This document shows, piece by piece, positions 7,357 to 61,181 of a DNA stretch of 64,000 bases. The stretch lies in contig JAAXWR010000001.1 of NCBI GenBank assembly GCA_013334825.1, forward strand, positions 203,769-267,768. The letters are read 5' to 3'. The notes below the pieces were generated by a model. It ran no database searches, was not told the DNA's origin, and saw only the letters and a program-made list of their open reading frames with translations. Each line of letters opens with the position of its first letter. Positions within the stretch are counted from its first letter, which is position 1. The translations under genes were made by a program, and so were the position numbers. This stretch comes from Candidatus Yonathbacteria bacterium (GTDB lineage Bacteria; Patescibacteriota; Minisyncoccia; Phycocordibacterales; JACNGX01).

Positions 7357-7947
7357 ATGATTTCTCCAGATTTTAATATAGTATACGCATTTTTTTCAAT
7401 GGCATGCATTATTGCGGGGGCTGTTCCGTATGTGCGTGATATGCTTAAGGGGAAGACGAAACCCCACACCTATTCGTGGTTTGTTTGGTTTCTCACCACG
7501 GGTATTGCCACAATAGGTTCGTGGTATGGAGGGGGAGGTTGGGGAGCAGTTTCGATGATTGTGTTTTCTGGTATTATAGGTTTGAATTTCGTTCTCTCTC
7601 TCCGCTTTGGGACGCGTGATATTACCCGCACTGACACAGTCGCTCTTATCGTTGCTCTCTTTGCAATAGTTCTTTGGATTGTACTTGATGATCCTCTTTG
7701 GTCAGTACTTTTGGCTACCGCAATTGATATCATTGGGTATATTCCGACAATACGAAAGACATGGTTTGACCCATCGTCCGAAACACCGTCCGCGTGGCTC
7801 CTTTCGATTATCGGAGACATGTTCGCGCTTCTCGCATTGTCAGCATATAATGTGCTTACGGTTACGTATCTTGTCGCTATTATTATTGTCAATATTATTG
7901 TATTTTTGATAGCTATTATGGGAAAGAAAACTGTTTCCGCAACGTAA
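7357..7947 (+). CDS. hypothetical polytopic membrane protein
   Basis: 196 aa with ~6 hydrophobic helices. No recognised motif. Confidence 0.45.
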   Translation: MISPDFNIVYAFFSMACIIAGAVPYVRDMLKGKTKPHTYSWFVWFLTTGIATIGSWYGGGGWGAVSMIVFSGIIGLNFVLSLRFGTRDITRTDTVALIVALFAIVLWIVLDDPLWSVLLATAIDIIGYIPTIRKTWFDPSSETPSAWLLSIIGDMFALLALSAYNVLTVTYLVAIIIVNIIVFLIAIMGKKTVSAT

Positions 7948-10185: not shown

Positions 10186-10545
10186 TAGGGACGGGAGAAC
10201 ACTCGAATCAAGAATCACGAAGCACGAATCAAGAATTAAGGGTTACGAAGTACGAACTTATACGAACATACGAAACTGGACGGGATGAAGGGTTATGAAA
10301 TATGAACTTGTACGCCTGCCCCGCACCCTATGTGGTGCATGGTGTTGGGGAATATACGGAATGTACGAATACGACTTCTTTTCTTTTGTCGTTTACCGTT
10401 TATAGTTTTCGTCTTCATATTTCATATTTCTATTTTCGTATTTCATCGTCTATAGTTTTTTCTTTTTATAGTTTATCGTTTATAGTTTCTTCGTCATTCG
10501 TAGGTTCGTACGTATTCGTTATTCGTAACTTTTCTTGAAACTCGT
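10160..10545. repeat. mosaic intergenic repeat R1
   Basis: Shares modules with 30138-30640, 33455-33870, 61182-61320 (reverse complement) and 62640-63176: (a)ggaaataggtgagaggtgatagg, gaatcaagaattaagggttacgaagtacgaacttatacgaacatacgaa (34/34 identical at 62925), cctgccccgcaccctacgtggtgca, and tacgaatacgac...cgtcttcatatttcatatttctattttcgtatttcat. ORF 10302..10538 is a reading-frame artefact. Confidence 0.8.
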
Positions 10546-10633
10546 TTATGGCTAGCGTAAAAAGCAAATCTATTGTATAGTGTCTCTATAAAGCGCTACG
10601 CGCTTTTTCTTTACCCTTTCTTTTCCGTTTTTT

Positions 10634-17788: not shown

Positions 17789-18037
17789 CATAGTGTGTAT
17801 AGTATAGCAGAAAACGTGCATTATGGAACATAAACGAGTTCGTAGTTCGTAGTTCTTAGTTCGTAGAGTGAACTGGTGAGTTTGAAACATGTTATGTCCC
17901 TTGTTTGGTACGGGATTATCAGCATGTCATGAGCCCACATCGCTTGTATGCACCCCACGTGGTGGATGTTTACTTTATTATGTTGAATACCTGAATACTG
18001 TGGAGTGGAAAAACAAAAAAGCGCAGAGTATGCGCTT

Positions 18038-23421: not shown

Positions 23422-23532
23422 ATGTCTTGATCAATGAGAAAAATTTGTTCGCACATAGTGAAGTAATATGGGTATCATATGTATAAAAATGTAAACACAA
23501 TATTTTTTTATTCTTCAATTCTTTATTCTTAA

Positions 23533-25203
<1,671 letters not shown>

Positions 25204-25322: not shown

Positions 25323-25913
25323 TCAATCGTGTACGCCGATGCCGTATGGATGTATGTCATCCATATTGAGAATATTATCTCCAAAAAGCGCGAAGGCATC
25401 ATCTTCATCGGGAGTCTCTCTTTTTTGCATATCGGACGATAGCATCGTCACGCAAAAGATGAAACCACGGGGATTGTCTCCTTTGCCGAATAGAGATTTT
25501 TCTGCCTTTTCAATGGGTGAGTCAGCAGAAATCTCAAATACCTGCAAAGGCAGTTTCGTTCCCTCGACGATAAAAAAAGTCGGCTCGTCAAAAGAAAGGA
25601 TATTTTTTGAGAGAAGATGTGTGGCGTTTGCTTTTTCGGCAAGCATCTGACGAATCGTCAGACCTGGGGTGATAGCAAATGCCTTGCAGAGAAATGTTCG
25701 GACGGAATCATCCTCCAAACTTTTCTCAAACGCCCCGTATGCCTTGTTATAGGCATCGTCTCCCGAGAACGTTTCTTTTCTCAGGCAGGGAACTGTGGCA
25801 TTTGGGTCCTCACCAAGGACAAGGAGCATGAACATATCCCTGTTCTCTGAAGGGAGCATACCGCTTCCATGAAGGAAGATAAGTGTTTCAACTGTTGATG
25901 ACATAAAAATCAT
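25323..25913 (-). CDS. hypothetical protein
   Basis: 196 aa, no recognised motif. Confidence 0.35.
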   Translation of the reverse strand: MIFMSSTVETLIFLHGSGMLPSENRDMFMLLVLGEDPNATVPCLRKETFSGDDAYNKAYGAFEKSLEDDSVRTFLCKAFAITPGLTIRQMLAEKANATHLLSKNILSFDEPTFFIVEGTKLPLQVFEISADSPIEKAEKSLFGKGDNPRGFIFCVTMLSSDMQKRETPDEDDAFALFGDNILNMDDIHPYGIGVHD

Positions 25914-28358: not shown

Positions 28359-30137
28359 ATGCTTTCTCGCGATATTCGATCCACATTTCTCAAATTTTTT
28401 GAAAAGAGGGGACATGCGATTGTTCCATCTGCTCCGCTCGTACCCGAAAATGACCCATCGGTACTTTTTAATACTGCGGGCATGCAACCGCTCGTTCCGT
28501 ATCTCATGGGACAACCCTATCCGACTGGCGCAAAGCGTATTGCAAATATTCAAAAATGTGTGCGTACCCAAGACATTGAAGAAGTCGGTGACAAAACGCA
28601 CGATACATTTTTTGAAATGCTCGGTAACTGGTCGCTCGGTGATTATTTTAAAGAAGATGCGATTGCGTGGAGTTATACGCTCTTGACGAACAAGGAGGAA
28701 GGGTTTGGACTTGATCCCGCACGTTTGTACGTGACGGTTTTTGCGGGAAATGCTGATGCGCCGCGTGACGACGAAGCTGCCGCGATATGGAAAAAGCTCG
28801 GTGTGCCTGAACACCGTATCTATTTCCTTGAGGACAACTGGTGGAGTCCGGGTGATAATGGTCCATGTGGTCCTGACTCGGAAATGTTTTATGATATTAC
28901 ACCCGAAGGATTGGGTGATATGACATTTGAGCAATTCAAAGTTGCCGATGATGCGCAAAAAATTGTTGAAATATGGAATGATGTGTTTATGGAATATGAA
29001 AAAAAGGATGGTAAGGTCATTGGTAAGCTTGCGCAAAAGAACGTGGACACTGGTGCGGGACTTGAACGTCTTGCTATGGCGCTTCAGGGGACTGATAGTA
29101 TTTTCACAACGGATTTATTTGATTCGATTATTGCTGCGGTCCATGAACGTGCGTCGATGTTTGATGTGCGTGCTGAGCGTATCATTGCCGACCATATCCG
29201 CACTGCAGTCTTTCTTATTGCAGATGGTGTTCGTCCATCAAATACCGATCAAGGATATATTTTGCGTCGGTTAATACGTCGCGCAGTACGGTATGCTGAC
29301 ACGATTCTTTTGGAAACGGATGCATTGGGAAGTGTCGCAGAAGCGGTTGCCGATGAATATATAAATGTATATCCGAATGTCATCGCGCAAAAAGACGTGA
29401 TTCTTGATGAAATCCGTAAGGAAGAAGAGAAGTTTCGTATGACACTCGCGCAGGGAATGCGAGAGTTTGAAAAAATTATTGGACGTGCAGAGAGTGGTGT
29501 CATCTCTGGAAACGAAGCGTTTACTCTTTTTTCATCGTATGGTTTCCCGTTTGAAATGACGAAAGAAATTGCTCTTGAACGTGGATTATCTATTGATGAA
29601 GAAACATATACTCAAGAAATGAATAAACACCGTGTATTGTCTCGTGCTGGCGCGGAACAAAAATTTAAAGGAGGACTTGCCGACACGAGTGAGAAAACGA
29701 CGGCACTGCATACCGCGACGCATTTGCTTCTTGCGGGGCTGCGCAAAGAACTTGGTAACCATATACATCAGGCGGGTTCCAATATCACTGAAGAACGCTT
29801 ACGTTTTGACTTTACGCATCCGGAAAAAGTGGAGCGTGAGGTACTCGACCGTATCGAAGCGTATGTGAATGACGTTATTCGTGCGGATGTCGAAGTGCGT
29901 ATGGAAGAGATGAAAAAAGAAGAAGCGAAAGCTGCTGGAGTCGAAGGAAGTTTCTGGGAAAAATATCCCGATGTTGTGCGTGTATATAGTATTGTGGGCA
30001 GTGATGGTACAGTGTACTCTCGTGAACTTTGTGGCGGTCCACATGTGACACACACCGGTACGCTTGGCAGGTTTACTATTCAAAAAGAAGAATCATCATC
30101 GGCAGGTGTACGTCGTATCAAAGCGGTACTTGTGTGA
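28359..30137 (+). CDS. alaS: alanine--tRNA ligase, short form (catalytic + editing domains, no C-Ala domain)
   Basis: N-terminal class II AlaRS motifs. Editing-domain HxxxH (HTATHLL) and CxxxH (CGGPHV). The ORF ends 20 aa later. Confidence 0.85.
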   Translation: MLSRDIRSTFLKFFEKRGHAIVPSAPLVPENDPSVLFNTAGMQPLVPYLMGQPYPTGAKRIANIQKCVRTQDIEEVGDKTHDTFFEMLGNWSLGDYFKEDAIAWSYTLLTNKEEGFGLDPARLYVTVFAGNADAPRDDEAAAIWKKLGVPEHRIYFLEDNWWSPGDNGPCGPDSEMFYDITPEGLGDMTFEQFKVADDAQKIVEIWNDVFMEYEKKDGKVIGKLAQKNVDTGAGLERLAMALQGTDSIFTTDLFDSIIAAVHERASMFDVRAERIIADHIRTAVFLIADGVRPSNTDQGYILRRLIRRAVRYADTILLETDALGSVAEAVADEYINVYPNVIAQKDVILDEIRKEEEKFRMTLAQGMREFEKIIGRAESGVISGNEAFTLFSSYGFPFEMTKEIALERGLSIDEETYTQEMNKHRVLSRAGAEQKFKGGLADTSEKTTALHTATHLLLAGLRKELGNHIHQAGSNITEERLRFDFTHPEKVEREVLDRIEAYVNDVIRADVEVRMEEMKKEEAKAAGVEGSFWEKYPDVVRVYSIVGSDGTVYSRELCGGPHVTHTGTLGRFTIQKEESSSAGVRRIKAVLV

Positions 30138-30640
30138 TTAACAAGAGGAGACAGGAAACGCAAGTGATAGAAAGAGAAAAAACAAGTGTGAGCATGGATA
30201 TGTTCACGCTTGTTTTTTGTCGTTCATCATTTCACCATGAGGATAGATCGTACTGAGTTACGAGATTTAAGTGTCGAAAGACAACAGAACGAGTTTCAAG
30301 TTGGCAGTTTCAAGTTTCAAGAACGCTTACGGATAACGAATACATACGCATGTACGAATACGACTCATTTTCTTTTATCGTTTATAGTTTTCGTCTTCAT
30401 ATTTCATATTTCTATTTTCTTATTTCATCGTCTACCGTTTTTCTTCGTCATTCGTATATTCCCAAGCACCATGCACCACGTAGGGTGCATGGCACGCTTG
30501 ATTCGAGTGTTCGTCCCTATAACCTATCACCTATAACCTCTTTCCTACATTCGTCCGTCCCTCTAACCTCTTTCCTAATCCCACCTTCTTTCCCCACGTA
30601 CGAGTAGTACAAAACGTATCATGTACGGTATACTATAGTT
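30138..30640. repeat. mosaic intergenic repeat R2
   Basis: Contains tacgaatacgactcattttcttttatcgtttatagttttcgtcttcatatttcatatttctatttt (as in R1) and pyrimidine modules cctataacctatcacctataacctctttcctac. ORFs 30210..30536 and 30350..30607 are artefacts. Confidence 0.8.
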
Positions 30641-30642
30641 AC

Positions 30643-31863
30643 ATGTCTCTCTTTCGTCATCATGTAAAACAAAAAGCACGTCTCATTCATGTGTATGACA
30701 TTGGGAGTGCTTCTGTTGGTGGTGCAGTAGTGCTTCTTGAGCATGGGAAGAAAGCTCGCATCATGTATACGGTTCGCCGCGATGTATTTATGCGAGAGAC
30801 TCCTGATGCGAAGCGTTTTCGTGACGAAATTCTCACCGCTCTTTCTGGTGTTGTTGAAGATATAGCAAAACATGCTCCAGCGCATATTCGTTTTACGAAA
30901 CATGCACTGCTACGTCCAGAGAAAGCTTTTTTTATGTTAGCGTCTCCCTGGTACGCGTCACAGACAAGACATGTGCATGTCTCATTTAAACGCCCGACAC
31001 GCATTCGCCAAATAGATCTTGAAGAACGAGCAGAACGAGAATATCAGGATTTTCTCAAATCTCCTGAGGTTCTTGCTTTGGGAGATACTTCTCATACGTT
31101 ATTTGATCGGCGTATTATTCAAGTATCTGTAAATGGTTATGAGACTTCTGTTCCTGAAGGGAAAGAAGCAACAACACTTGATATGAGTATTGTATTTTCT
31201 ATCATTCCTTCAGATGCTGCGACTCGTATGAAAGAAATATGTGAACGTGCTTTTTCTTCGGTGGAGATTGTATTTCAAACATTTTCACTTGCTACGTTTG
31301 ATATTGTGAGAAATAAAGAACCAAATCTTTCAGAATGTATGTTGCTCGATGTGTCAGGGGAAGTATCTGAAGCATCTTTTGTTCGAGAAGGAGTGTTGTG
31401 GGAGACGGTGTCATTTCCTGTTGGGAAACTTACGCTTGTGCGTCGTATCGCCGAACTTCTCGGGAGTACTCCCGATGAAGCATTATCGTCATTGCGTATG
31501 TATGCGGAAAATGGATTTTCTCGTGAAGAAAAAATGCGTATTGGAAAAGCAGTAGAAACAGCAGCGGAATCATGGATGCGTGCTTTGCGTCATGCTGTTT
31601 CAGTTTCTGTCCCTGAAGAACAAATGCCTTCATCTGTGCGCCTTGCGTCCGATGCCGATGTTCTCTCATGGCTGCGTAGTGTTTTGGAACATGAAGAAAT
31701 GTCTCCGCAGGCTGTCGATATGCTCTATGTTCATGATCTTTGCGATATGTCTTCTGGTATCACATATGATTCATTTCTTGTTGTTGGTTCTGCTTTTTCT
31801 GCGCGTATATGCAATGAAAACAATCCACATCGTTTTTCGCATACACAAGGACGACGCTCGTGA
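30643..31863 (+). CDS. divergent actin-like ATPase (FtsA/PilM-like, ASKHA fold)
   Basis: Phosphate-1-like IHVYDIGSASVGGAVV and phosphate-2/adenosine-like LLDVSGEVSEASFVREGVL...FPVGKLTLVRRIAELLG. 406 aa. Confidence 0.5.
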   Translation: MSLFRHHVKQKARLIHVYDIGSASVGGAVVLLEHGKKARIMYTVRRDVFMRETPDAKRFRDEILTALSGVVEDIAKHAPAHIRFTKHALLRPEKAFFMLASPWYASQTRHVHVSFKRPTRIRQIDLEERAEREYQDFLKSPEVLALGDTSHTLFDRRIIQVSVNGYETSVPEGKEATTLDMSIVFSIIPSDAATRMKEICERAFSSVEIVFQTFSLATFDIVRNKEPNLSECMLLDVSGEVSEASFVREGVLWETVSFPVGKLTLVRRIAELLGSTPDEALSSLRMYAENGFSREEKMRIGKAVETAAESWMRALRHAVSVSVPEEQMPSSVRLASDADVLSWLRSVLEHEEMSPQAVDMLYVHDLCDMSSGITYDSFLVVGSAFSARICNENNPHRFSHTQGRRS

Positions 31864-31922
31864 TATACTAATACATACCGTTTCCAATATTTTATTATCT
31901 CTTTTTCATCTTTATATTTTTT

Positions 31923-33452
31923 ATGCCACGAAAATCTATGAACGACATCCGAACGACGCGTAATGTTCGGATGAAAAAAACATCATCTGTGCATTCTGAG
32001 ACAGAGTCTGCTTCTCCCAAAGAGCATACCTCATTTGATGTTCGTTCGTCACACGAAGAATCTCCAAAGAATAGTGAATTTTTCGCATATGTAAAAGAAG
32101 GGAAAAAACGCACACCTTCATCCTTGCGTTCTCATGCTCCGCGTAAAGCACCCGTTTCTCCACGAAAACGTTCTCTTGTTGATGTCTCAGATGTGGACGC
32201 TATTGATAAAGAAGACGCGACAGTCTCTGAGAGTATGTCTCGTCCTTCTGCTCCTCAGCCGATTGAGTGGACTCGTCCAGGTGTGCGAACATCAGGAGGA
32301 AAAGGTATTTGGTGGATTGCGGCTGTTGCAGTATTTGTTTTTGTTATTATGTTGATGAATGTGTTTGCGGGGGCGACAGTTACCCTTGTTCCCAAGCAGG
32401 AAAATACATTTATTGAGGGAAACTTTACTGCTATGCGTGGGGGAAGTGCAGATAGTCAAGATTCGATTGGATTTGAAGTGATGGATGTTGTCGCAGAAGA
32501 ATCTATTGAAATCCTCGCAACAGAAGAACGTGAGTCTGAGCGTCGCGCGTCTGGAACAATCGTCATTTACAATACATATAGTACAAACGAGCAACGGCTT
32601 GTGAAAAAAACACGTTTTGAGGATCCCGCGGGACATATTTATCGTATCAATGAATCTGTTGTGATACCAGGTATGCGTACCGAAGGAGGAGAAACGATTC
32701 CAGGTTCTGTCGAAGTAACCGTTTCTGCTGATGAACCAGGAACTGATTTTAATATTGCACTTGTTGATTTTACTATTCCTGGATTTAAAGGTTCTCCTCA
32801 ATACGACAAGATGTATGCACGTTCAAAGACGCCGATGACAGGAGGATTTGTTGGACTTGAAAAGGTTGCTTCTGAATCTGAAGTAATCGCAGCACAACAA
32901 GAATTGGAAAAGAAACTTTCCGAAAAACTTTTATCTGACGCACGGAGTCAGACACCAGCAGGATCAATTCTTGCAGAATATGCGACAACACATACATTTG
33001 AACATCTTGACCCTGTTCCATCCGATGATAATAAAAATGTTATCGTTACCGTTCGCGGCACACTCCATGCAATGGTATTTGATGGGGGAGAAATGGCACG
33101 ATTTATCGCTCGTCGATCTGTCGCATCTTATGATGATAAAGATGTCTATTTTTCGGATGTATCAAAACTTTCAATAGGTATCGTTCCTGAGGAAAATGGA
33201 GAAGCTGTGATTGATGATACTGTTACCATATCTCTCGGAGGTACACCACACATTGTATGGACTGTTGATAAGAAAGAAGTCCTGTCGGCAATTGTTGGGC
33301 GTTCCAAAAAGGAGTTTGATGAGACGATGAAGAAGTTTCCCGCCATTGCGTCCGCGCAGGCATCAATGCACCCATTTTGGAAAGGGGAGTTTCCTGAAGA
33401 CGCGAAAGATATCTCTGTTGTGCAAATTGTTGATGGAAAAGAAGTGAAGTGA
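31923..33452 (+). CDS. bitopic membrane protein: disordered basic/Ser-Pro-rich cytoplasmic N-terminus, one TM, large extracytoplasmic domain
   Basis: TM at IWWIAAVAVFVFVIMLMNVFAG (~aa 137-158). 509 aa. No recognised domain. Confidence 0.5.
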   Translation: MPRKSMNDIRTTRNVRMKKTSSVHSETESASPKEHTSFDVRSSHEESPKNSEFFAYVKEGKKRTPSSLRSHAPRKAPVSPRKRSLVDVSDVDAIDKEDATVSESMSRPSAPQPIEWTRPGVRTSGGKGIWWIAAVAVFVFVIMLMNVFAGATVTLVPKQENTFIEGNFTAMRGGSADSQDSIGFEVMDVVAEESIEILATEERESERRASGTIVIYNTYSTNEQRLVKKTRFEDPAGHIYRINESVVIPGMRTEGGETIPGSVEVTVSADEPGTDFNIALVDFTIPGFKGSPQYDKMYARSKTPMTGGFVGLEKVASESEVIAAQQELEKKLSEKLLSDARSQTPAGSILAEYATTHTFEHLDPVPSDDNKNVIVTVRGTLHAMVFDGGEMARFIARRSVASYDDKDVYFSDVSKLSIGIVPEENGEAVIDDTVTISLGGTPHIVWTVDKKEVLSAIVGRSKKEFDETMKKFPAIASAQASMHPFWKGEFPEDAKDISVVQIVDGKEVK

Positions 33453-33454
33453 AT

Positions 33455-33870
33455 GTAGGAAATAGGTGAGAGGTGATAGGCACGAATGCTCGAATCAAGC
33501 GTGCCCTGCACCCTACATGGCGTGCTGTGCATCCTACGTGGTGCACAGTGCAGGGAATCACGAAGTACGAAGCAAGAATACGAAAGATGAATTAAGAAAT
33601 ATGAACGTAGGAAATAGGTGAGAGGTGATAGGTTATAGAGACGGACGAGATGAAAGGTTACGAAATACGAACTTGTACACCTGCCCCGTACCCTACGTGG
33701 CGTGCTGTGCATCCATGTGGCTTGCTGTGCATCCCACGTGGTGCACAGTGCAGGGTGCTGGGGAATCTACGAATGATATATAACACGTGTGGAAGAGACT
33801 TTTTATTCGTATATTCGTGCGTATTCGTTATTCGTAAGCACTCGTTATTCGTAAGCGTTCTCGTAACTCA
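33455..33870. repeat. mosaic intergenic repeat R3
   Basis: Two copies of gtaggaaataggtgagaggtgatagg and cc(c)tgcaccctacgtggcgtgctgtgcatcc...cacgtggtgcacagtgcaggg inverted repeats, plus ggttacgaaatacgaacttgtac. ORF 33146..33712(-) is an artefact. Confidence 0.8.
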
Positions 33871-33947
33871 GTAACGTCTGTCATCCCGAACATGATGTTA
33901 GGTATGGGTCCGAAGACGCCACTCTGTATTGTGGTATAAAAAAACAT

Positions 33948-34030
33948 CCCCCCGGCTAAGCACCGGGAGGGATGAAAGTGCGAGGTCCCCCTCCTCGCAC
34001 TGAGCTCCGCGGGAGCGGAGCGATTCAAAT
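33948..34030 (+). other. three consecutive GC-rich hairpins upstream of infA
   Basis: catccc-cccggctaagcaccggga-gggatg; agtgcgagg-tccccc-cctcgcact; gctccgc-ggga-gcggagc. Confidence 0.4.
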
Positions 34031-34132
34031 TCGTACAATGTCTACCCAGCATCATACACGAGCCAGTGGTGGTGTCAAGCGCACAAATGCTTGCATTCTT
34101 TTCGTGTCTCTGGTATGATATGCGTCATTGTA

Positions 34133-38040: not shown

Positions 38041-38126
38041 TCGGTTACGAAGTACGAACTCATACGAATACGTACTTCATTCATTTTTTTAATTTCCTAA
38101 TCTCCTAATATATTAATCTCCTTACT

Positions 38127-38930: not shown

Positions 38931-39279
38931 TCAACCTTCTTTTGTACACAAAAGCGCCCCCAAGGGCGCTTTTACTTATGGTAGAAGCAAAAGACTGCCA
39001 CCATAAAACCCCACAGTGAAATTCGTCCGGCTCAAAAACTTATATAAAACTGAGGTTTTGTATAGTATAACGATACTATGGACATAATTATAGATATATG
39101 CTATAATATGTAAATATTATCTTGTCCTTTTTAATAAAATCAAAGCAATAACTTCTCGAGTTCCAACATGAGTAGCACAGTGGACGTTGCTGGAATGTTC
39201 AGTGTGCTGCCCATGTCGGGTATGCTCTGGTGCGGGGAACGCACATCATCACGCCGCAGGGCGTAAAACGGAGAATATT

Positions 39280-40005
39280 ATGGAAATCAAGATGCGTCGC
39301 AAGGGCGAAGTCATCACAAAAGACGGCTTTGAAAACCGTTCTGTTCCTACGGCTATTATGCCGCCGAATGGTCTGACCGGCATTGATCTTACCAGTTACT
39401 CTGTCATTTTCGCCACGTTTGGACGTGGTGGGTATGAAAAGGCAAAGGCGCTTCATGAAAAAGCTCCCGGAGCCATCGTCGTATACAAGTACGAGTGGCG
39501 CAACGGATGGGGCGAGGGAGTTCTCCTTCCCGAACGGTTCAATTCAAGCCGTGTACGCTTTTATAAGAGCGCCAAGCAGGCTCTTGCCGAAGAAAAGGAA
39601 GCCAAGAAAAATGCCATGGAGGCACTTCGGCGAGAGATAGCTGAGGCAATTCCGGGCATTATTGCACGGATGGCGTACACCAACGAAGCTGTGGAGATTC
39701 ATCCCAACCAGGAGGTGTACAGTAGTCGCAGTGCGTGGGTCGTATATGCGACTGCTCTTGAAGAAGCAAAAGAGGAGGTTGCAAAAATGCGCCCAATCTG
39801 GGAGGAGTGGAATGCGAGGGGACTTGAAGTATTCCATCGGCATTCCGAGAAAAAAAATCCTGGATATGGAAGTATTGCATTAATCATCGGAAACTCCGAG
39901 GACGAGGCCGAGATTAATGTCGATCACAACACCCAGGCGTGGGCGAGTCTCAGAAAAGAGGGAGAAAACTGGATTGAAGTTGGTTTTCGCGTACGTGGGT
40001 GTTGA
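39280..40005 (+). CDS. hypothetical protein (242 aa), higher GC than flanks
   Basis: ATG preceded by ggag. Ends 7 nt before terminator 40017-40043. No recognised family. Confidence 0.5.
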   Translation: MEIKMRRKGEVITKDGFENRSVPTAIMPPNGLTGIDLTSYSVIFATFGRGGYEKAKALHEKAPGAIVVYKYEWRNGWGEGVLLPERFNSSRVRFYKSAKQALAEEKEAKKNAMEALRREIAEAIPGIIARMAYTNEAVEIHPNQEVYSSRSAWVVYATALEEAKEEVAKMRPIWEEWNARGLEVFHRHSEKKNPGYGSIALIIGNSEDEAEINVDHNTQAWASLRKEGENWIEVGFRVRGC

Positions 40006-40043: not shown

Positions 40044-40278
40044 ATGCGTATTTCGCCCCCAAAACCCGTCTCGTAGGACTGAAGCGAAGGCTTCAAGAAC
40101 CATTGATTCGAATTAAGAATCAAGAATCATGAATTAAGAATGATGAAGTAAGGATGAGACGACGGCATCATGTGTTCATGGCTATAAGTATTTTGTTTGT
40201 ACGTATACTATTTTTATGCCCTTGTGGATACGCTTGTTTGATCCCAAGCCCTCATACTGTTAGAATGACTATATTAGG

Positions 40279-41268
40279 TTGTCTACTTTTTGTCTTATGA
40301 CTTTTACACAAAGAATGGAAAAAATACAAAAAGATTTCAATGTCAATGCAATTTATGCAAAGAATATTGTTTTGCGTATACAAGAGAAAAATGAGGAAAA
40401 TTTTTGGAAGCAAGTGAATATTGCAATAATGCAAAAGCCAAAACCGTTTGTAAAATGGGTTGGTGGGAAACGTCAACTACTTAAACAATTTCGAGATATG
40501 GGCCTGTACCCTCCCGTTGAGTTTAATCCCGAGAAGAACAGATATTTTGAACCTTTTGTTGGAGGTGGTGCAGTTTTTTTTGATTTATTGCCACAAAAAG
40601 CATTTCTTTCTGACATGAACAGTGAACTCATTACAACATATAACGTTATAAAGAATGATGTTGAAAAACTTATTATGTCTCTCAAGAAACATAAACATGA
40701 AAAAGAATATTATTATTCAATACGTGAGAAGGATCCTAGTACAATGACCGATGTGGCAGTCGCTTCAAGATTTATTTATCTAAATAGAACTGGATTTAAT
40801 GGAATGTATCGCGTGAATAAGTCTGGGAAATACAATGTTCCTTTTGGGAAAAACAAGAACCCACTTATTTGTGATGAGACGAATCTAAGAAGAGTATCAG
40901 AAACATTGAAGCATGTGGAAATTGCAAGAGACGATTATAAAAATGTTTTGAAAAAAGCAAAAAAAGGAGATTTTATTTATTTTGATCCCCCATATCATCC
41001 AGTGAACAAAACCGCAGCTTTTACTTCGTATACCCCTGACGGTTTTAGGGAAAAAGAACAAATCGAGTTGAGAGATACTTTTTTGAAACTTCACAAAAGA
41101 GGCTGTTTTGTTATGCTTTCAAACTCAGACGCACCGTTTATTAACAAGATATATTCTGAGGTAAAGAATGATGGAATAGCGATTCATAAAGTTCAAGCAG
41201 GAAGGGCTATTAATTCAAAAGGGAACAGACGAGGAAAGATTTTTGAGGTTTTAATTACTAATTATTAA
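40279..41268 (+). CDS. Dam-family DNA N6-adenine methyltransferase, DpnM/M.MboIA-like (GATC-type)
   Basis: KPFVKWVGGKRQLL, YFEPFVGGGAVFFDL, YLNRTGFNGMYRVN, FIYFDPPYHP motifs. Closely resembles S. pneumoniae DpnM by recall. Start may be at M-51 (40429). Low GC. Confidence 0.85.
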   Translation: MSTFCLMTFTQRMEKIQKDFNVNAIYAKNIVLRIQEKNEENFWKQVNIAIMQKPKPFVKWVGGKRQLLKQFRDMGLYPPVEFNPEKNRYFEPFVGGGAVFFDLLPQKAFLSDMNSELITTYNVIKNDVEKLIMSLKKHKHEKEYYYSIREKDPSTMTDVAVASRFIYLNRTGFNGMYRVNKSGKYNVPFGKNKNPLICDETNLRRVSETLKHVEIARDDYKNVLKKAKKGDFIYFDPPYHPVNKTAAFTSYTPDGFREKEQIELRDTFLKLHKRGCFVMLSNSDAPFINKIYSEVKNDGIAIHKVQAGRAINSKGNRRGKIFEVLITNY

Positions 41269-41281
41269 TCATCTAAAAATC

Positions 41282-43015
41282 ATGAATAATATAAAAAAAT
41301 TTATAGATACAAATCCCTACACGTATTCAACCCTTTGTGATAGATACAAAAGATTTTCTATGCCATTAAACCAGCGCCCTTACGCTTGGAAAATTTCAAA
41401 CATTTCCGAACTATGGAGTGCCATTCTTGAAAACGAAGAAGGTTATTTTGTAGGAAATCTCGTATGTCTAGATCCTTCCGATGAGAGTAATGGTACCCTG
41501 GTTGTTGTAGATGGCCAACAAAGGTTAACAACCATATCGCTTATACTTATTGCCATTAAAGATATTCTTATCGAATGCAATGATGGGACTAAAAAAACAA
41601 CCCAACTTATAAATTGGTTAACTAACAGTTTACTTTGGCAAGATCCCAAGACATACGAATATTTTCCAAGATTGATCCACAGTAAAGAAAATTTGCTTGA
41701 GGCGTATAAAAATATCTTAGAAAATGGAAACGAAATTCCAAAAAATATTGACGATAATCAAATGCGTTATTATTCGAATATTAGATATATAAAATCTCTC
41801 ATAAAGAAAGAAATTAAAGCAAAATCTGATGATCAGATTGAAAAGCTTATACAAAAGATTTTATCCCTACAGTTTATAGCGATTGTGGTAAATTCAGAAA
41901 ATGATATTTACGATTTGTTTGAAGGTTTAAACTCAACAGGGTTAGGTCTTTCCGTTGCTGATCTGTTAAAGAATTCAGTTCTAAAATTTGCCCGAAAAGG
42001 AAGAGCAAGAGAAGAAATAGAGGCGGATTGGATCCAAATGGAGTCATATTTTGAAGCAACAAAAACATCCCTGTTCCCTAAATTCCTAAGACATTACTAT
42101 ATTTCTGAGAATGGTCTTATTTCTTCTTCTCGACTTTTTAAAACTCTAAAGAAAGAAAAAATTGAGAATAAACAAACTCAAGAAGTTGTTGCGTTTGTGA
42201 AAGAGCTGTTGGAGAATGCGCAGATATATATGGGGTTAAGATTTGATGAATATGAAAGCAATCTTAACCTACTTGTTCGCGATAGGGAGAGTAAAAAGAT
42301 AATTAGAACTTTTGAATATGTAGGAAGTGTTGATCAAGTTTATGCGGTGTTGTTGGCTTTTTATAACAAAAAAAGGCATGACCCTGATTATAAACCGAGC
42401 TCTTTTAAGCGAGACATTCGTCAACTCCTTAAATTTGTTATATTGGCAAGATTTGTAAGTATCAACCCTTCGGAGTATGAAAAAATATTTGGTGATATGT
42501 GCGAAATATCCACAGAATATTCAGGGGTAAAATATGAAAAAGAGATAGGACAACATTTTAAGAAATTGTTTAATTTAGTTAATAAAAAAGATGAATTTGT
42601 GAGTAATTTCTCAAACGAAATAGAATATGGAAGAGATTCAAAACTCATAGAATATCTTTTGCAAGAAGTGATGCGAGAATATTCAAAAGAAGATCGCGGA
42701 ATAACAGTATTGAACCCAAATATCGAGCATATTTTACCAAGATCTCCAAAAAAATGGGGATTGGATAAAGAAGATATAGGTTCTTATGTTAATAAAATAG
42801 GCAATCTCACAATTCTTCATGATCTAGACAATAATGATGCCGGGAATGAAACTTTTGAAGAAAAGATGAAGAAAGTTTATTCTGTTTCGAAATTTAGATT
42901 TAATAATGATATAAGTAAATATGAAGAAGTTTTTGTCGAGAATCCTTCACTGGCAATTGAACAGAGAGGGAAAGATATTTCCACTTTTGTTTTTAGTTTT
43001 TTAAAGTCAATCTAG
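41282..43015 (+). CDS. GmrSD-family protein: N-terminal DUF262 (ParB-like, DGQQR) + C-terminal DUF1524 (His-Me/HNH-like) domains
   Basis: VVVDGQQRLTTISLIL near the N-terminus; NIEHILPRSP...IGNLTILHDLDNN near the C-terminus. 577 aa. Confidence 0.75.
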   Translation: MNNIKKFIDTNPYTYSTLCDRYKRFSMPLNQRPYAWKISNISELWSAILENEEGYFVGNLVCLDPSDESNGTLVVVDGQQRLTTISLILIAIKDILIECNDGTKKTTQLINWLTNSLLWQDPKTYEYFPRLIHSKENLLEAYKNILENGNEIPKNIDDNQMRYYSNIRYIKSLIKKEIKAKSDDQIEKLIQKILSLQFIAIVVNSENDIYDLFEGLNSTGLGLSVADLLKNSVLKFARKGRAREEIEADWIQMESYFEATKTSLFPKFLRHYYISENGLISSSRLFKTLKKEKIENKQTQEVVAFVKELLENAQIYMGLRFDEYESNLNLLVRDRESKKIIRTFEYVGSVDQVYAVLLAFYNKKRHDPDYKPSSFKRDIRQLLKFVILARFVSINPSEYEKIFGDMCEISTEYSGVKYEKEIGQHFKKLFNLVNKKDEFVSNFSNEIEYGRDSKLIEYLLQEVMREYSKEDRGITVLNPNIEHILPRSPKKWGLDKEDIGSYVNKIGNLTILHDLDNNDAGNETFEEKMKKVYSVSKFRFNNDISKYEEVFVENPSLAIEQRGKDISTFVFSFLKSI

Positions 43016-43058
43016 TTCCTGGTTCTCAAATTTATTAACAACATATCACATTAACTCT

Positions 43059-43925
43059 ATGGAAAATAGTAAGTTTTTAGTCTTTAAAAATACACGAAAA
43101 AACTCAATAAAGACTTGGGAGTATTTTGTGAATTGGGATAAGGTATTCAAGAATAAGAGAGAAGTGGAAATAGCTCTTAATAAAATGAATTATCTTCTCG
43201 GAAAAGAAAATTTAAAAGAAGAGTTTTTCTTATTATTGAAATCAGAACCAGATATTATAAAAACTTTCCCCATTCTTTTGGCGGTAAGAGAGCAAAAATT
43301 AGAGATTTATGATAAAAAAGAAAAGACATCGAGGTTTTTTGATTTTTCTAGTATTGATAATATGGAAGATCCAGAAGAATATTTTGAATTTTTTGAAAAT
43401 ACCGGTCTTACCAATATTTTTAAAAAAGATGGTGTAAAAAACCTTGTCGATTATGTTATGGGCGTAGAAGTTGGTCTTGAAAGTAATGGGAGAAAAAATC
43501 GAGGAGGTCAACTCATGGAGGTGATAACTGAAGAGTATATAAAGCAGTATTCAGAAGCAAATCATTTTTCTTATTTAGCACAAGCCACTGCGAAAGGTAT
43601 TTATGAAAGATGGGGTATAAATATTTCTGTAGATAAGTCAGAAAGAAGTTTTGATTTTGCTGTATATAATCCATTAAAAAATAAAATAAAATTGTTCGAA
43701 GTAAACTTTTATAATGGAGGAGGTTCAAAATTAAAAGCGGTTTGTGGAGAATTTAAAGGTCTTTTTGATTATCTAAAAGCACAAGGTGTTGAATTTGTTT
43801 GGATTACTGACGGTATGGGTTGGAATAATACGACAAGACCCCTTGAGGAGGTATATAACCATAACGATAATATCTTCAATCTATCAATGCTCGAAGAAGG
43901 GGTCCTCAACTCTCTTAAATGGTAG
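43059..43925 (+). CDS. type II restriction endonuclease, DpnII/MboI family (GATC)
   Basis: 288 aa, same length as R.DpnII. Motifs NLVDYVMGVEVGLESNGRKNRGG, EVNFYNGGGSKL, FVWITDGMGW match R.DpnII by recall. Confidence 0.75.
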   Translation: MENSKFLVFKNTRKNSIKTWEYFVNWDKVFKNKREVEIALNKMNYLLGKENLKEEFFLLLKSEPDIIKTFPILLAVREQKLEIYDKKEKTSRFFDFSSIDNMEDPEEYFEFFENTGLTNIFKKDGVKNLVDYVMGVEVGLESNGRKNRGGQLMEVITEEYIKQYSEANHFSYLAQATAKGIYERWGINISVDKSERSFDFAVYNPLKNKIKLFEVNFYNGGGSKLKAVCGEFKGLFDYLKAQGVEFVWITDGMGWNNTTRPLEEVYNHNDNIFNLSMLEEGVLNSLKW

Positions 43926-43937
43926 TATATTTTTTGT

Positions 43938-44690
43938 ATGAAATTTGGTCCAGACACATTTGATTTAGAATGTACAACCGTATGGGCTTTTCCTCGACGT
44001 GGTAATTGGGCTACACATACGTCAGATTGGCGTGGGAATTGGTCTCCTGAAGTGGTGCGCAATCTCATTTTACGATATTCCGAAGAGGGAGATATTTTAC
44101 TCGATCCAATGATTGGTGGGGGAACAACAGCAATCGAAGCAAAGATTTTGAATAGAAACATTATTTGTTCAGATGTGAATGATATCGCTATTGAACGGAC
44201 GAAGAATTGTCTTGTGTTTGATGTAGAGAATAATTCTTGGCAAAAGGTCTTGAAAAGAGACGCTAGAGATCTTAATAAAGCAAAAAATGAGAGTGTTGAT
44301 TTTATTCTCACTCATCCTCCATATGCCGATATTATAAAATATAGCGATGGTAAGATAGAAGAAGATCTTTCAAATATTCATAATATAGATTCCTTCGTCG
44401 ATGAAATGGAAAAAGTGGCAACGGAGCTTCATAGGGTTTTGAAGAAAGACAAATACTGCGCAATTTTAATCGGAGATACTCGTAGAAATAAAATGTATCA
44501 GCCTTTAGCTTTTAAGGTAATGGATAGATTTTTGAAAACAGGTTTTCAATTGAAAGAAGATATTATCAAACGACAATTTAATTGTCAGGCGACAGGTTTT
44601 TGGGTGAATAAATCAAAAGAAAATAATTTTCTCCTTATTATGCACGAACATCTCTTTGTGTTTCAAAAAGTTGGTGGAGACGCTCATTGA
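43938..44690 (+). CDS. second DNA methyltransferase (N6-adenine/N4-cytosine, ParB-like methylase family) of the R-M operon
   Basis: AdoMet motif I LDPMIGGGTTAIEA and motif IV ILTHPPYADI. Its last 7 codons and stop lie inside repeat copy 1. Confidence 0.75.
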   Translation: MKFGPDTFDLECTTVWAFPRRGNWATHTSDWRGNWSPEVVRNLILRYSEEGDILLDPMIGGGTTAIEAKILNRNIICSDVNDIAIERTKNCLVFDVENNSWQKVLKRDARDLNKAKNESVDFILTHPPYADIIKYSDGKIEEDLSNIHNIDSFVDEMEKVATELHRVLKKDKYCAILIGDTRRNKMYQPLAFKVMDRFLKTGFQLKEDIIKRQFNCQATGFWVNKSKENNFLLIMHEHLFVFQKVGGDAH

Positions 44691-50689: not shown

Positions 50690-50830
50690 TACGAACAATA
50701 TTTTTTAAATCCTAATATCTAAATCCTAAACAATATAAAAATTAAAAATTCAAATGTCCAAAATGTTGTGTGTTAGTTTTTGAATTTTGGTAATTGAAAT
50801 TTGTTTAGAATTTAGGATTTAGTGTTTAGT
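50690..50830. repeat. AT-rich imperfect long inverted repeat upstream of dnaK
   Basis: taaatcctaaacaa...aaaattcaaa...tttgaatttt...ttgtttagaatttaggattta. aaatcctaa-type words repeated. Confidence 0.5.
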
Positions 50831-50900
50831 ATTTATCATGGGACATTGTGATTTATACATCAGATTCTTCATTAATAATCTCTAATTTTTACATACATAT

Positions 50901-55377: not shown

Positions 55378-57033
55378 ATGTTTTCCACTGATGCTATACG
55401 TGCCATTCTCGGCATAGAAGAGTCTGTGCAACTTACACCACTAGAAATGGCGGATAAATTAAATATTACTTTTTATCCATACTCTGAACATGACGTGAGT
55501 CCACATGTTCTTGCATTCGCAACATTACTAGAGAAGACCCTATTTGAATTAAAAGCAAATATTGTTCCCTATGAGGAATCATTAGAGCATGTTTCTGTGC
55601 GAAAACGTATACGAAGAGTCGTACGTATTTTGATTAATGATATAGGGTATTTTTTCCAACGTATAATTAAAAAAACTCCCTCAATACCATTCATTGGTAT
55701 CGCGGTCATAAAAAGTGCGCTTCGTCCGAAAAGAATAAAAGCGGGCATATCTGTTATTGCTTTAGGAGAGCAAGCAACAGGAAATCTACCCATGGACAAT
55801 ACTTCAAGTTTTCGAAGGAGTTCTGTAATTACCATACTTGATCGTCCAGATAATATAAAAAAAGAGACAGCATTTCAGGAGCATTTTGATACTGCCATGC
55901 ATCTGTTTGCGTATCATATGACGAATATCGTACTTGCTGTCGACGAAAAAGAGTGGATCGTATATAACTTCAATGCATCACATCCTGTGTATCAGATTGA
56001 TGACACTTTTAAAGAACATGTATTATCGGCATTAATACCAAAAATTGTTGCTCCTATCAGGCCGTATCGATTTTCGGAATTTATTGTGACACAAAATGGT
56101 TTTGATCCGCATGACGAATATCATGAACGTTTAGTATATGATTTGACATATAGTGGAACACTTCTTGAAAAAACAGGATTGTATCCACCTGGAAAAAAGA
56201 TTGAAGATCTTCCTTTTCGAAATAAATTTTATGAGTGGATTGGGAAAATACATTTAGATAACCGTAATGGCATGAGCTATGGATTTCTTGCTTTGCAAAT
56301 GCCAGTACAGATTTCTCCAGTGATGAACCATGAGGAAGCAGAAAAGTTTTTTGGGGATTCCATACCACTTGCTGAAGGAAACTTCGTATTTGATACACAT
56401 ATGTATTTTACTTTTTCATTTGATGGAGAATTGTTATATATGAAAATTCCTGATGTGTGGGTTCTCTCTCAGCGTTCTGGTTGTGATAAAACACATATGG
56501 ATCCAGAAAAAGATATTTTAAAAATGGGGCTTATCGATGGGCAGATGCATCTTCGTTCGCCAAAAGGTTTGGAGTTAACAAAAGAATATAAACCTTCTTT
56601 TGATACAAAGGTGATTTTGGCACATGCTGTGGGAAATGCGATTGTTGCTTCTCTTTCGGCATATAAAGGAATAAATAGTCATTTTGTAACTATGATGCGC
56701 ACACAAGGTGTTGCTCTTGCGCATTGGCATGGATATATCAATCCCAATATGATTCCCGAAGGATGGTTTACACATGGTATCCAAAATCCTCATGTTGCGT
56801 GTTCATCACCCCAATCAGCAGTGTACGCTCTTTCGGGAAAACTCGATGTATTTATTGAGGCATTTGCAAAGAAGAAAGAATATAGAGGAGACATTCATAT
56901 CGAACCACACCATGGTACAAATATTATTTTTCCGAGTCTGGTGGAACTTGGTAAATATCTTTCTGGAGATATGCAAGTTGCTGTTTTGGGAAATGCGTAC
57001 CTTTATTTGTATGAACATAATGAGAATCTTTAA
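55378..57033 (+). CDS. hypothetical protein (551 aa), no recognised domain
   Basis: Long uninterrupted ORF co-oriented with dnaJ-plsC. AT-rich codon usage. Confidence 0.5.
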   Translation: MFSTDAIRAILGIEESVQLTPLEMADKLNITFYPYSEHDVSPHVLAFATLLEKTLFELKANIVPYEESLEHVSVRKRIRRVVRILINDIGYFFQRIIKKTPSIPFIGIAVIKSALRPKRIKAGISVIALGEQATGNLPMDNTSSFRRSSVITILDRPDNIKKETAFQEHFDTAMHLFAYHMTNIVLAVDEKEWIVYNFNASHPVYQIDDTFKEHVLSALIPKIVAPIRPYRFSEFIVTQNGFDPHDEYHERLVYDLTYSGTLLEKTGLYPPGKKIEDLPFRNKFYEWIGKIHLDNRNGMSYGFLALQMPVQISPVMNHEEAEKFFGDSIPLAEGNFVFDTHMYFTFSFDGELLYMKIPDVWVLSQRSGCDKTHMDPEKDILKMGLIDGQMHLRSPKGLELTKEYKPSFDTKVILAHAVGNAIVASLSAYKGINSHFVTMMRTQGVALAHWHGYINPNMIPEGWFTHGIQNPHVACSSPQSAVYALSGKLDVFIEAFAKKKEYRGDIHIEPHHGTNIIFPSLVELGKYLSGDMQVAVLGNAYLYLYEHNENL

Positions 57034-59786: not shown

Positions 59787-61181
59787 ATGACTCGTATTTC
59801 CATTAGTAAACTCCATGCATATATCGGGCAAGAAGTTACTCTTGCTGGTTGGGTACATGTGCGTCGTGATCATGGCAAACTTATTTTTATAGATTTGCGT
59901 GACGCAACGGGTATTGTACAGATGGTTGCACTTCCCAATCATGCGGATGCGCATGCGGTTGCATCATTGGTGCGTTCGGAATGGGTCGTCGAAGTGTCTG
60001 GACTTGTGAATAAGCGTCCAGAAAAAATGGTGAATGCGGATGAAGAAAATGGTGATATTGAGATTGAACTCTTAGGGTTAACAGTGCTTAATGAAGCACA
60101 GACACCGCCGTTTGAACTTACGAATGATACATCGGGCATTGATGAGAACATCCGTCTCAAGTATCGATATCTTGATTTGCGTACTGCGCGAATGCAACGA
60201 AATATTCGTACACGAAGCGCGTTTGTGTCATCGTGTCGTCATTATCTTTTTGATAACGATTTTGTCGAAGTGGAGACACCGCTTCTCACTGAGTCAACGC
60301 CAGAAGGGTCGCGCGACTTTGTTGTGCCATCGCGTCTCAATGCAGGGCATTTTTACGCATTACCCCAATCTCCTCAGCAGTATAAACAATTGCTTATGAC
60401 AGGGGGTATGGAAAAATATTTTCAAATTGCGCGTGCCGTGCGCGATGAAGATTTGCGTGCTGATCGTGGCTTTGAACATACACAGGTAGATATTGAAGCA
60501 TCGTTTGTTTCGGAAGAGGATATACGTTCGCTCGTCGAAGATATGATTATCAAATCGGCTGAATCAGCAGGGAAGACTATCAGACAAAAACCGTTTCCAC
60601 GTATGACCTATGCGGAAGCGATGCAGACGTATGGAGGGGATAAATTTGATATGCGCACAGATGAAGAAAAAGAAGCAGGCATACTTGCGTTCGCATGGGT
60701 TGTTGATTTTCCTATGTTTGAGAAGACTGAAGAAGGAACATGGACGTTTACACACAATCCATTTTCTATGCCAAAATTAGAACATCTTGAGTTACTCATG
60801 AAAGGGGAACGCATTGATGAGATACTTGCGCAACAATATGATCTAGTATGTAATGGATATGAATGTGGTGGAGGAAGTGTTCGTGCGCACAAGCCAGAAA
60901 TTCTTCGCGCAACATACAAGATTATGGGATATACCGATGAAGAAATCGAAGCGAGCGTAGGACATATGCTTGAAGCGTTTTCTTATGGAGCTCCTCCCCA
61001 TGGAGGTATTGCTCTTGGTGTTGAACGTATGACCATGATACTTACGGGAGAAACAGAACTTCGTGAGGTGCAAGCATTTCCCATGACACGCGGAGGACAG
61101 ACCGCAGTGATGAATGCACCGAAACCTCTTACAAATAAACAGTTGGATGAGTTAGGAATAGAAGTGAAAAAGAAAAAATAG
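59787..61181 (+). CDS. aspS: aspartate--tRNA ligase, bacterial-type sequence but lacking the GAD insertion domain (464 aa)
   Basis: YALPQSPQQYKQLLM, QIARAVRDEDLRADRGFEHTQVDIE, GGGSVRAH, and C-terminal motif 3 GIALGVERM. YGGDKFDMR runs straight into WVVDFPMFE with no GAD domain. Confidence 0.85.
   Translation: MTRISISKLHAYIGQEVTLAGWVHVRRDHGKLIFIDLRDATGIVQMVALPNHADAHAVASLVRSEWVVEVSGLVNKRPEKMVNADEENGDIEIELLGLTVLNEAQTPPFELTNDTSGIDENIRLKYRYLDLRTARMQRNIRTRSAFVSSCRHYLFDNDFVEVETPLLTESTPEGSRDFVVPSRLNAGHFYALPQSPQQYKQLLMTGGMEKYFQIARAVRDEDLRADRGFEHTQVDIEASFVSEEDIRSLVEDMIIKSAESAGKTIRQKPFPRMTYAEAMQTYGGDKFDMRTDEEKEAGILAFAWVVDFPMFEKTEEGTWTFTHNPFSMPKLEHLELLMKGERIDEILAQQYDLVCNGYECGGGSVRAHKPEILRATYKIMGYTDEEIEASVGHMLEAFSYGAPPHGGIALGVERMTMILTGETELREVQAFPMTRGGQTAVMNAPKPLTNKQLDELGIEVKKKK

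Follow-up and report, generated by a model that had tools for sequence, protein, structure and literature searches.

In this work we describe a pair of neighbouring genes in a 64,000-nucleotide stretch of the genome of an uncultured Candidatus Yonathbacteria bacterium (hereafter the window). The first gene encodes a 406-aa actin-like protein and the second, 59 nt further on and likewise on the + strand, a 509-aa membrane protein. An earlier note, made from the letters of the window alone, had proposed here a divergent actin-like ATPase with a single-pass membrane partner, and both open reading frames (ORFs) are present as it described them. The pair combines two folds that are not known to cooperate, an FtsA/PilM-class actin-like fold and an outward-facing baseplate-J-like fold with a PilN/FtsN-style peptide. 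In our judgement it is about evenly balanced whether the pair, taken as a whole, is a lineage-specific envelope module of Parcubacteria-type Patescibacteria built on the logic of PilM-PilN and FtsA-FtsN. For the descriptive parts, namely the folds, the family, the synteny and the motif, our confidence is very high, and from them we infer the physical docking, any nucleotide dependence and the biological process.

The literature that we searched holds no description of the pair, in agreement with the novelty that had been suggested for it, and the pairing of an actin-like protein with a baseplate-J-like protein that is anchored in the membrane and faces outward appears to be new. A large share of bacterial diversity belongs to the Patescibacteria (Candidate Phyla Radiation, CPR), whose conserved lineage-specific proteins are mostly without known function; in hundreds of species-level genomes the pair occupies a fixed place among housekeeping genes. 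Parcubacteria-enriched families are reported to be mostly hypothetical and to include many membrane proteins (PMC6744442), and the pair probably belongs among them.

The actin-like protein and its membrane partner

The 406-aa product is 100% identical to "hypothetical protein HGB03_01005, Candidatus Yonathbacteria". Apart from its motifs the earlier note had called it unrecognisable, and in fact no curated family model matches it, neither in Pfam (E<=1) nor in NCBIfam. It belongs to a large, uncharacterised family of uniform length (about 380–420 aa), so far seen in Patescibacteria only. A 24-member profile run against 1.84 billion proteins gave 3829 cluster representatives at E<=1e-3 and 1954 at E<=1e-30, the clusters being made at 50% identity.

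An AlphaFold (AF2) model on the family alignment reached a pLDDT (predicted local distance difference test) of 88.9 and a pTM (predicted template modelling score) of 0.88. When this model was compared with the PDB by Foldseek, FtsA of S. aureus, T. maritima, Vibrio and E. coli topped the list (E 2.4e-20 to 1e-15; query-normalised template modelling score, TMq, up to 0.65, and 0.64 for the match at E 2.4e-20), PilM came second (E 6e-18 to 1e-13), and EutJ, Ppx/GppA, MreB and ParM were much weaker (E 1e-9 to 1e-7). The model contains an SHS2 (strand-helix-strand-strand) insert, E105–120, H123–137, E151–163 and E175–189, which is the counterpart of subdomain 1C of FtsA/PilM and is flanked or marked by near-invariant SPW (101–103) and NGY (164–166). 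It is this SHS2/1C insert that sets FtsA and PilM apart from other actins. At the level of sequence profiles, hhalign aligned the family with E. coli FtsA over 305 columns, along the whole length and including the 1C region (E 4.4e-5, probability 69%); with E. coli HofM, a truncated PilM homologue, it found nothing (probability 0.3%), and a profile search of the PDB gave marginal matches (E about 0.07). The 406-aa protein can safely be assigned to the FtsA/PilM class of actin-fold (ASKHA) proteins, as the earlier note had expected of its structure.

The phosphate-1 motif and the phosphate-2/adenosine motifs (LLDVSGEVSEASF ... FPVGKLTLVRRIAELLG, residues 234–274) that had been quoted for this protein are all present, and the nucleotide-motif blocks are the most conserved stretches of the family. 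Among about 230 aligned members the conservation is 94% for D19, 93% for G21, 93% for S24, 94% for D236, 90% for G239, 99% for E240, 99% for G261 and 92% for R267. Further near-invariant residues are specific to the family, including W103 (98%), N164-G165-Y166 (95–98%, Y166 98%), W311 (96%), D376 and F378. The part of the claim that calls for correction is the enzyme itself: an ATPase is unproven, and the label seems premature because the adenosine-loop glycines are replaced and phosphate-2 is altered. In hhalign and the family alignment phosphate-2 is D(I/V)SGE(V)TD in place of the DIGGGTMD of FtsA, the window's MLLDVSGEVSEASF being a DxGGGT variant with Ser and Glu at two glycine positions, and the stretch aligned to the FtsA adenosine loop LTGGAAQ reads (L)TxDxDV, its glycines gone. 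Despite the altered site, the acidic residues D19, D236 and E240 are kept. After the last core helix the 230 members have a median of only 15 residues (range 5–32), and hence no C-terminal amphipathic membrane anchor.

The 509-aa product is 100% identical to HGA48_02810 and has more than 234 homologues, every source name shown being Patescibacteria. Its AF2 model (pLDDT 82 overall, >90 for residues 127–509) agrees with the architecture read earlier from the sequence: a basic cytoplasmic tail (about residues 1–126) that is disordered in the model (pLDDT < 50), one transmembrane (TM) helix (127–148, hydropathy maximum 2.59 at residue 132) and a well-folded ectodomain of 361 aa (pLDDT > 90). The tail has an isoelectric point (pI) of 9.98 and an S+T+P content of 33%, and the ectodomain a pI of 4.77. 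With its tail basic and its ectodomain acidic, the protein is, as expected for such charges, predicted to be a type-II (N-in, C-out) bitopic membrane protein. The 48 sequences aligned for this family have a mean column identity of 35% and several invariant blocks; none of them matches Pfam PilN, and a sequence-profile search of the PDB gave no match.

The ectodomain resembles baseplate-J wedge proteins, a class that goes by the names gp6 (T4), gpJ (P2), gp47 (Mu) and TssF. Foldseek matched it in the PDB to the baseplates of cyanophage A-1(L) (8kea_d, E 3.4e-7) and phage Mu (9ki1_H, E 7e-5), as well as of Pa193 and XM1, and to the GlxA barrel domain (E 2e-6, root-mean-square deviation 2.2 A over 101 columns). 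In the viral structure library BFVD most named top matches are "Baseplate J-like", and the likeness extends over 350–450 columns in both collections (baseplate-type matches: probability 1.0, best E 6e-8 to 3e-7). The barrel domain is also shared at the sequence level: phrog_6 "baseplate wedge subunit" matches all five members searched over ~70 residues (E 2e-6 to 8e-5), and the Pfam GlxA barrel matches 44 of 48. Unlike the phage proteins, the 509-aa protein is membrane-anchored and extracellular and is encoded at a housekeeping chromosomal locus, and no sheath, tube, spike or other baseplate genes accompany it at the examined loci.

The extreme N-terminus of the membrane protein carries the motif (P/A)K(N/K)I(L/F)QD(I/V)(V/I)PPx(K/R)RSIR in 112 of 114 non-redundant homologues (D 93%), and the other two are N-terminally truncated records. 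Behind this peptide, whose consensus type is ILQDIVPPEKRSIRNI and of which the window protein has its own variant, MPRKSMNDIRTTR, follows a low-complexity tether of 33–216 residues (median 59). Since a short conserved peptide sits on a tether of variable length, we read residues 1–19 as a predicted docking peptide. No other proteins bearing the motif were found in the fetched related loci. The core of the peptide is (N/D)-hydrophobic-hydrophobic-Pro with basic residues after it, a pattern similar to the PilN motif (I)N(L/F)LP; thus E. coli HofN starts with MNPPINFLPWRQQRR (MNPPINFLPWR), to be compared with ...QDIVPPEKR. The earlier note had stressed that INLLP is absent. Literally this is so, but the conserved QD(I/V)(V/I)PP is a peptide of the same type.

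Gene order in related genomes

Related loci were gathered with the membrane-protein alignment, as the actin-like alignment offered no stretch conserved enough. A scan of one genome per species found membrane-protein relatives in 519 genomes. The 80 listed are all Patescibacteria or unclassified metagenome-assembled genomes (Kaiser-, Campbell-, Nomura-, Wolfe- and Taylorbacteria, Paceibacteria, Minisyncoccia), many of them labelled "uncultured Candidatus Saccharibacteria", a label that is unconfirmed.

Linkage was then counted wherever the upstream sequence extended for 1.5 kb or more, which was so for 75 loci. In 69 of these the membrane-protein gene is immediately preceded, on its own strand, by a full-length actin-like gene; the median gap is 52 nt, some of the pairs overlap by up to 35 nt, and the pairing persists down to 29% identity of the actin-like protein. 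This strict adjacency fits the logic of an actin-like protein with a membrane partner, which the earlier note had put forward. Farther upstream alaS is the usual neighbour, and infA-rpsM...rpoA follows downstream in 58 of 67 loci, so that the conserved order is alaS, the pair, infA, rpsM, rpsK, rpsD and rpoA. In the nine loci where infA is replaced, its substitutes (including PCMT, UDG, LysRS, GNAT and a methyltransferase) give no functional clue. From this position, shared by most of the related genomes sampled, we take the pair to be ancient and vertically inherited.

The exceptions fall on the side of the actin-like gene. It is missing in four of the 75 loci (L049, L058, L070 and L079 in our numbering). 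In the first three alaS abuts the membrane-protein gene, as it does in L081, for which the upstream sequence is shorter; in L079 the preceding gene encodes a peptide-chain release factor, which rules this ORF out as a cryptic actin-like gene. Moreover, L064 (7096–7929) retains a 277-aa remnant without the SHS2 part and with mutated phosphate motifs, and L082 (7350–7850) only a 166-aa C-terminal half. Six of these loci (L049, L058, L070, L081, L064 and L082) share a distinctive, fully conserved peptide, NIDDIIxPxRKSIRxIPIP. Judging from these sequences, the actin-like gene is already gone or is decaying in one clade of Patescibacteria. The membrane protein is the core component and the actin-like protein is losable, because the former and its peptide stay conserved where the latter is lost or eroded. 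This clade is a natural test of how far the two proteins depend on each other.

Proposed role and alternative explanations

In the model that we propose, a soluble, anchor-less actin-fold protein (subdomains 1A, SHS2/1C, 2A and 2B) would work with a type-II partner, which offers its N-terminal peptide on a long, flexible, basic cytoplasmic tether and holds baseplate-J-like domains outside. The peptide would dock on the actin-like protein, by analogy in the 1A–1C cleft, and docking would recruit that protein to the membrane. The oligomeric or ligand state of the actin-like protein, which may act as an accessory regulator or scaffold, could then be linked to how the external domains are arranged, for example in clusters or a ring. 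Baseplate wedge proteins are oligomerising building blocks, which makes such external clustering or ring formation plausible. As the housekeeping context is fixed, a constitutive envelope function is suggested, and the process is probably a housekeeping one, e.g., division, organisation of the wall or surface layer, or anchoring of surface structures. If the docking is true, the pair would be a third branch of the FtsA-FtsN and PilM-PilN theme, in which actin-like proteins control bitopic envelope proteins, and would give a testable handle on envelope organisation in ultra-small, host-dependent cells.

A bolder version, which we consider improbable, is an envelope-spanning machine: an external ring or lattice of domesticated baseplate (J/wedge) domains would be tethered, through single TM helices and long flexible tails, to a cytoplasmic FtsA/PilM-like oligomer and would carry a surface structure with which the cell attaches to a host or organises its wall. 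If true, this would be the first cellular, non-injection use of the baseplate wedge fold outside the cell, under actin-like control.

Among known systems, the proposed design may be compared with RodZ-MreB and MapZ-FtsZ, whose bitopic landmark or adaptor proteins bind a cytoskeletal protein through a long cytoplasmic tail. Like RodZ and MapZ, the 509-aa protein is N-in and single-pass, with a cytoplasmic binding element (here predicted), a flexible linker, a TM helix and a sizeable extracellular domain. The differences are that no similarity of sequence or fold to them was found, that the binding element here would be a short peptide rather than the helix-turn-helix domain of RodZ, and that the partner here is an FtsA/PilM-class protein.

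Several observations weigh against the proposed module. First, the nucleotide site is atypical, with TxDxDV for the GG loop and SGE for GGG, which makes ATP dependence doubtful, and in L072 (6644–7762) a full-length copy has both phosphate motifs degenerate. Second, in the window the peptide reads MNDIRTTR, without the PP and the RSIR of the consensus. Third, the baseplate-J likeness has low global TM scores (0.17–0.24), and outside the barrel its sequence support is sub-threshold, Baseplate_J (PF04865) matching just 3 of 48 members at E about 0.007, below the Pfam threshold; because of the low scores, the ectodomain is, on its model, composed of domains related to baseplate-J proteins but differently arranged. 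Fourth, the neighbouring genes in the window and the related loci offer no clue to the process served. Finally, the peptide is fully conserved where the adjacent actin-like gene is absent or decayed, and since it is kept there, it must have another partner or role, or an actin-like copy must sit elsewhere in those genomes.

The last point leads to a reading without docking, in which the membrane protein alone is a structural protein of the wall or surface, its peptide serves another partner, and the actin-fold protein, a pseudo-enzyme or regulator that the cell can do without, has only the operon in common with the membrane protein. The persistence of the membrane protein and its peptide without an intact actin-like gene, the atypical and in some members degenerate nucleotide motifs, and the better conservation of the membrane-protein family (35% mean column identity) are all in its favour. 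However, the two genes adjoin in 69 of 75 loci, with short spacers or an overlap, and stay together even where identity has fallen to 29%, which would hardly be expected of genes that are not functionally coupled. The actin-like family is also strongly constrained (more than 15 positions at >=90% across 230 members), and its protein has no other route to the membrane. We therefore regard this reading as rather unlikely.

Another reading takes the 406-aa protein as a true, highly divergent FtsA and the membrane protein as its divisome partner (an analogue of FtsN, FtsQ or MapZ), acting with FtsZ in cytokinesis. FtsA (PDB 3wt0, 1e4g, 7q6i) is indeed the best structural match of the 406-aa protein, with the same domain order including 1C, and the remote profile similarity extends over the full length. 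Pfam FtsA (PF14450) weakly matches 14 of 24 family members (best E 5.8e-5), and one member matches E. coli FtsA directly (phmmer, E 8.7e-4). Moreover, FtsN and PilN are both bitopic and bind with short N-terminal cytoplasmic peptides in the IA–IC cleft of FtsA and PilM, respectively (PMC7613929), an interaction whose counterpart is predicted here. On the other hand, the FtsA family models are unmatched, both the NCBIfam FtsA equivalog and SHS2_FTSA (PF02491; 0 of 24 members), the C-terminal amphipathic membrane-targeting helix of FtsA is absent, and DxGGGT and LTGGAA are changed to D(I/V)SGE(V)TD and LTxDxDV. A canonical FtsA with an adjoining division gene, which the earlier note had named as evidence that would count against it, was looked for. 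With E. coli FtsZ, FtsQ and FtsA as queries, phmmer found no ftsZ or ftsQ in the window or in the 84 related loci, and no canonical ftsA in the 1.1 Mb of related loci, where an MreB in L037 was all that turned up. Loss or decay of the gene in one clade while its partner stays would also be unexpected for an essential FtsA. Annotated ftsA transcripts have been reported in ultra-small groundwater organisms (PMC9938205), which suggests that a canonical copy may exist. Taken together, an FtsA orthologue is unlikely.

We consider it similarly unlikely that the pair is a specialised alignment subcomplex, of the PilM-PilN type, in a type IV pilus or a related filament, where the baseplate-like ectodomain would replace the periplasmic domains of PilN and PilO in a cell without outer membrane. 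PilM has no membrane anchor and relies on PilN. The pair resembles PilM-PilN (PDB 2ych, 5eou) in its actin fold with 1C/SHS2 and no membrane helix of its own, in the actin-like gene lying immediately upstream of the gene for a bitopic N-in protein, and in the partner's extreme N-terminal (N/D)-hydrophobic-hydrophobic-Pro peptide with basic residues behind it; PilM is among the best structural matches. Type IV pili are also abundant in CPR (PMC6744442). However, CPR genomes already have recognisable PilM, PilN and PilO co-located with PilB and PilC (PMC6744442), whereas near the pair no pilB, pilC, pilO, pilT or pilin genes were found in the window or in the 75 related loci, the neighbours being alaS and infA with the ribosomal-protein genes. 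Sequence models of the pilus proteins do not match the pair either: Pfam PilM_2 and NCBIfam pilM are empty for the window protein and the 24 family members, as are Pfam PilN for the partner and the hhalign comparison with HofM. PilN differs in its INLLP as against QD(I/V)(V/I)PP, in a tether of about 20 residues as against 33–216, and in a coiled coil with a ferredoxin fold as against a baseplate-J-like ectodomain of ~360 aa, and the adenosine-loop glycines of PilM are replaced in the actin-like protein. In sum, our preferred reading is of a pair that would work like PilM-PilN and FtsA-FtsN by analogy, yet is a member of neither, because the family models, the FtsA membrane helix, the linkage to ftsZ, the PilN fold and the linkage to pil genes are all missing.

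Genomic setting, repeats and further features of the window

The coordinates of the pair, its parts and its surroundings are compiled in Table 1. Downstream of the pair lie infA, rpsM, rpsK, rpsD, rpoA, rplQ and rplM, and the remaining window is mostly housekeeping as well, with RNase J, GroEL, DnaK, DnaJ, TypA, tRNA synthetases and ScpA. The earlier note had remarked that ftsZ, pilN and pilO are lacking here, and we likewise recognised no ftsZ, ftsA, pilN or pilO in the window, using Pfam on most, not all, ORFs of at least 150 aa and phmmer with E. coli FtsA and FtsZ. A prophage remnant was considered as well and is ruled out by the housekeeping setting, the normal GC content and the absence of further phage genes.

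Table 1. Positions in the window of the gene pair, the parts of its products and the flanking features
Feature	Position	Strand	Remark
alaS, short form	28359–30137		upstream of the actin-like gene
Upstream intergenic mosaic repeat block	about 30239–30600		period-7 arrays AGTTTCA, TTCATAT, CCTATAA
406-aa actin-like gene	30643–31863	+	ORF confirmed
Phosphate-1 motif, residues 14–29, IHVYDIGSASVGGAVV	30682–30729	+	aligns with E. coli FtsA LEIGTAKV
SHS2 insert, residues 105–189	30955–31209	+	model and hhalign
Phosphate-2 motif, residues 233–246, MLLDVSGEVSEASF	31339–31380	+	aligns with FtsA VVDIGGGTMD
509-aa membrane-protein gene	31923–33452	+	ORF confirmed
N-terminal peptide, residues 1–19, MPRKSMNDIRTTRNVRMKK	31923–31979	+	Yonathbacteria variant of the family motif; predicted docking peptide
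Disordered basic S/T/P-rich tether, residues 20–126	31980–32300	+	pLDDT < 50, pI
Single TM helix, residues 127–148, KGIWWIAAVAVFVFVIMLMNVF	32301–32366	+	model helix
Extracellular multi-domain region, residues 149–509	32367–33449	+	baseplate-J/wedge-like by Foldseek
GlxA-type beta-barrel, about residues 203–291	32529–32795	+	Foldseek, Pfam
Downstream intergenic mosaic repeat block	about 33450–33885		approximately the reverse complement of the upstream block, with internal duplication

The earlier note had described the pair as bracketed by two large mosaic repeats. The blocks are real. They are composed of short period-7 arrays (AGTTTCA, TTCATAT, CCTATAA, ATAGGTG and others) and share modules far beyond chance (2–5 observed against 0 in shuffles). 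They are inverted and roughly colinear, with inner arms of 64 nt at 86%, outer arms of 27 nt at 81% and an overall identity of 67%. The bracketing is not specific to the pair, however, because the same modules recur at 80–93% identity and in various orientations in at least five other intergenic regions (10200–10550, 38043–38076, 40103–40157, 61170–61320 and 62925–63200). In a related Yonathbacteria locus (L086) the gene order is the same with almost none of these arrays, and on this comparison the repeats thus look like a recent, genome-wide intergenic expansion, which did not bring the pair.

It had also been suggested that the pair was relocated by repeat-mediated recombination. That it should be cargo of a mobile or invertible segment is scarcely credible: the inverted, roughly colinear blocks with their 64-nt inner arms and the start of the downstream block exactly at the stop codon of the membrane-protein gene would suit such a segment, but the synteny comparison finds the pair between the same housekeeping genes in dozens of species as well as in the block-less Yonathbacteria relative, the modules are dispersed in shuffled orientations, the segment between the blocks holds no transposase or integrase (ORF list and Pfam), and its GC content resembles that of the surroundings.

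Period-7 arrays (GAATCAA, TTCATAT, CCTATAA, ATGAAAT and others) are also found at 17837–17866, 23507–23546 and 50706–50835. They assemble into mosaic blocks of 300–450 bp, so that spacers are swollen to 500–650 bp in an otherwise compact genome. We take these period-7 mosaics to resemble the STRR (short tandemly repeated repetitive) heptamer repeats of cyanobacteria. Long imperfect palindromes occur at 33678–33758 in a GTGCA-rich module, where Rfam mir-674 scores 35.7 bits against a gathering threshold of 93, a spurious score that almost certainly stems from the inverted repeat structure.

Between the membrane-protein gene and infA, on the minus strand at 33938–34078, lies a candidate small RNA of ~107 nt in antisense orientation. 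It has a near-consensus promoter (TTGACA-16-TATGAT, 11/12), three GC-rich hairpins whose loops are rich in C or G, and a U7 terminator, and its minimum free energy is -51.8 kcal/mol (z = -4.6, with 0 of 200 shuffles equally stable). Its Rfam matches are sub-threshold only (sX13, anti-hemB), in line with scans of the window with Rfam and for tRNA, which were empty at gathering thresholds, and an exact 19-mer search of the other loci gave no match.

Farther downstream, positions 40279–44690 form a low-GC (0.31–0.34) restriction-modification/defence island with genes for a Dam-type (D12 class) methyltransferase, GmrSD, a DpnII endonuclease and an N6/N4 methyltransferase, after which a 162-nt direct repeat occurs three times (44668, 45380 and 46455). 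Several sizeable ORFs in the window are without a Pfam match: 97–1032 (311 aa), 7357–7947 (196 aa), 25323–25913 (196 aa), 39187–40005 (272 aa) and 55378–57033 (551 aa), the last of which lies directly upstream of a gene for a histidine kinase with seven TM helices (7TM).

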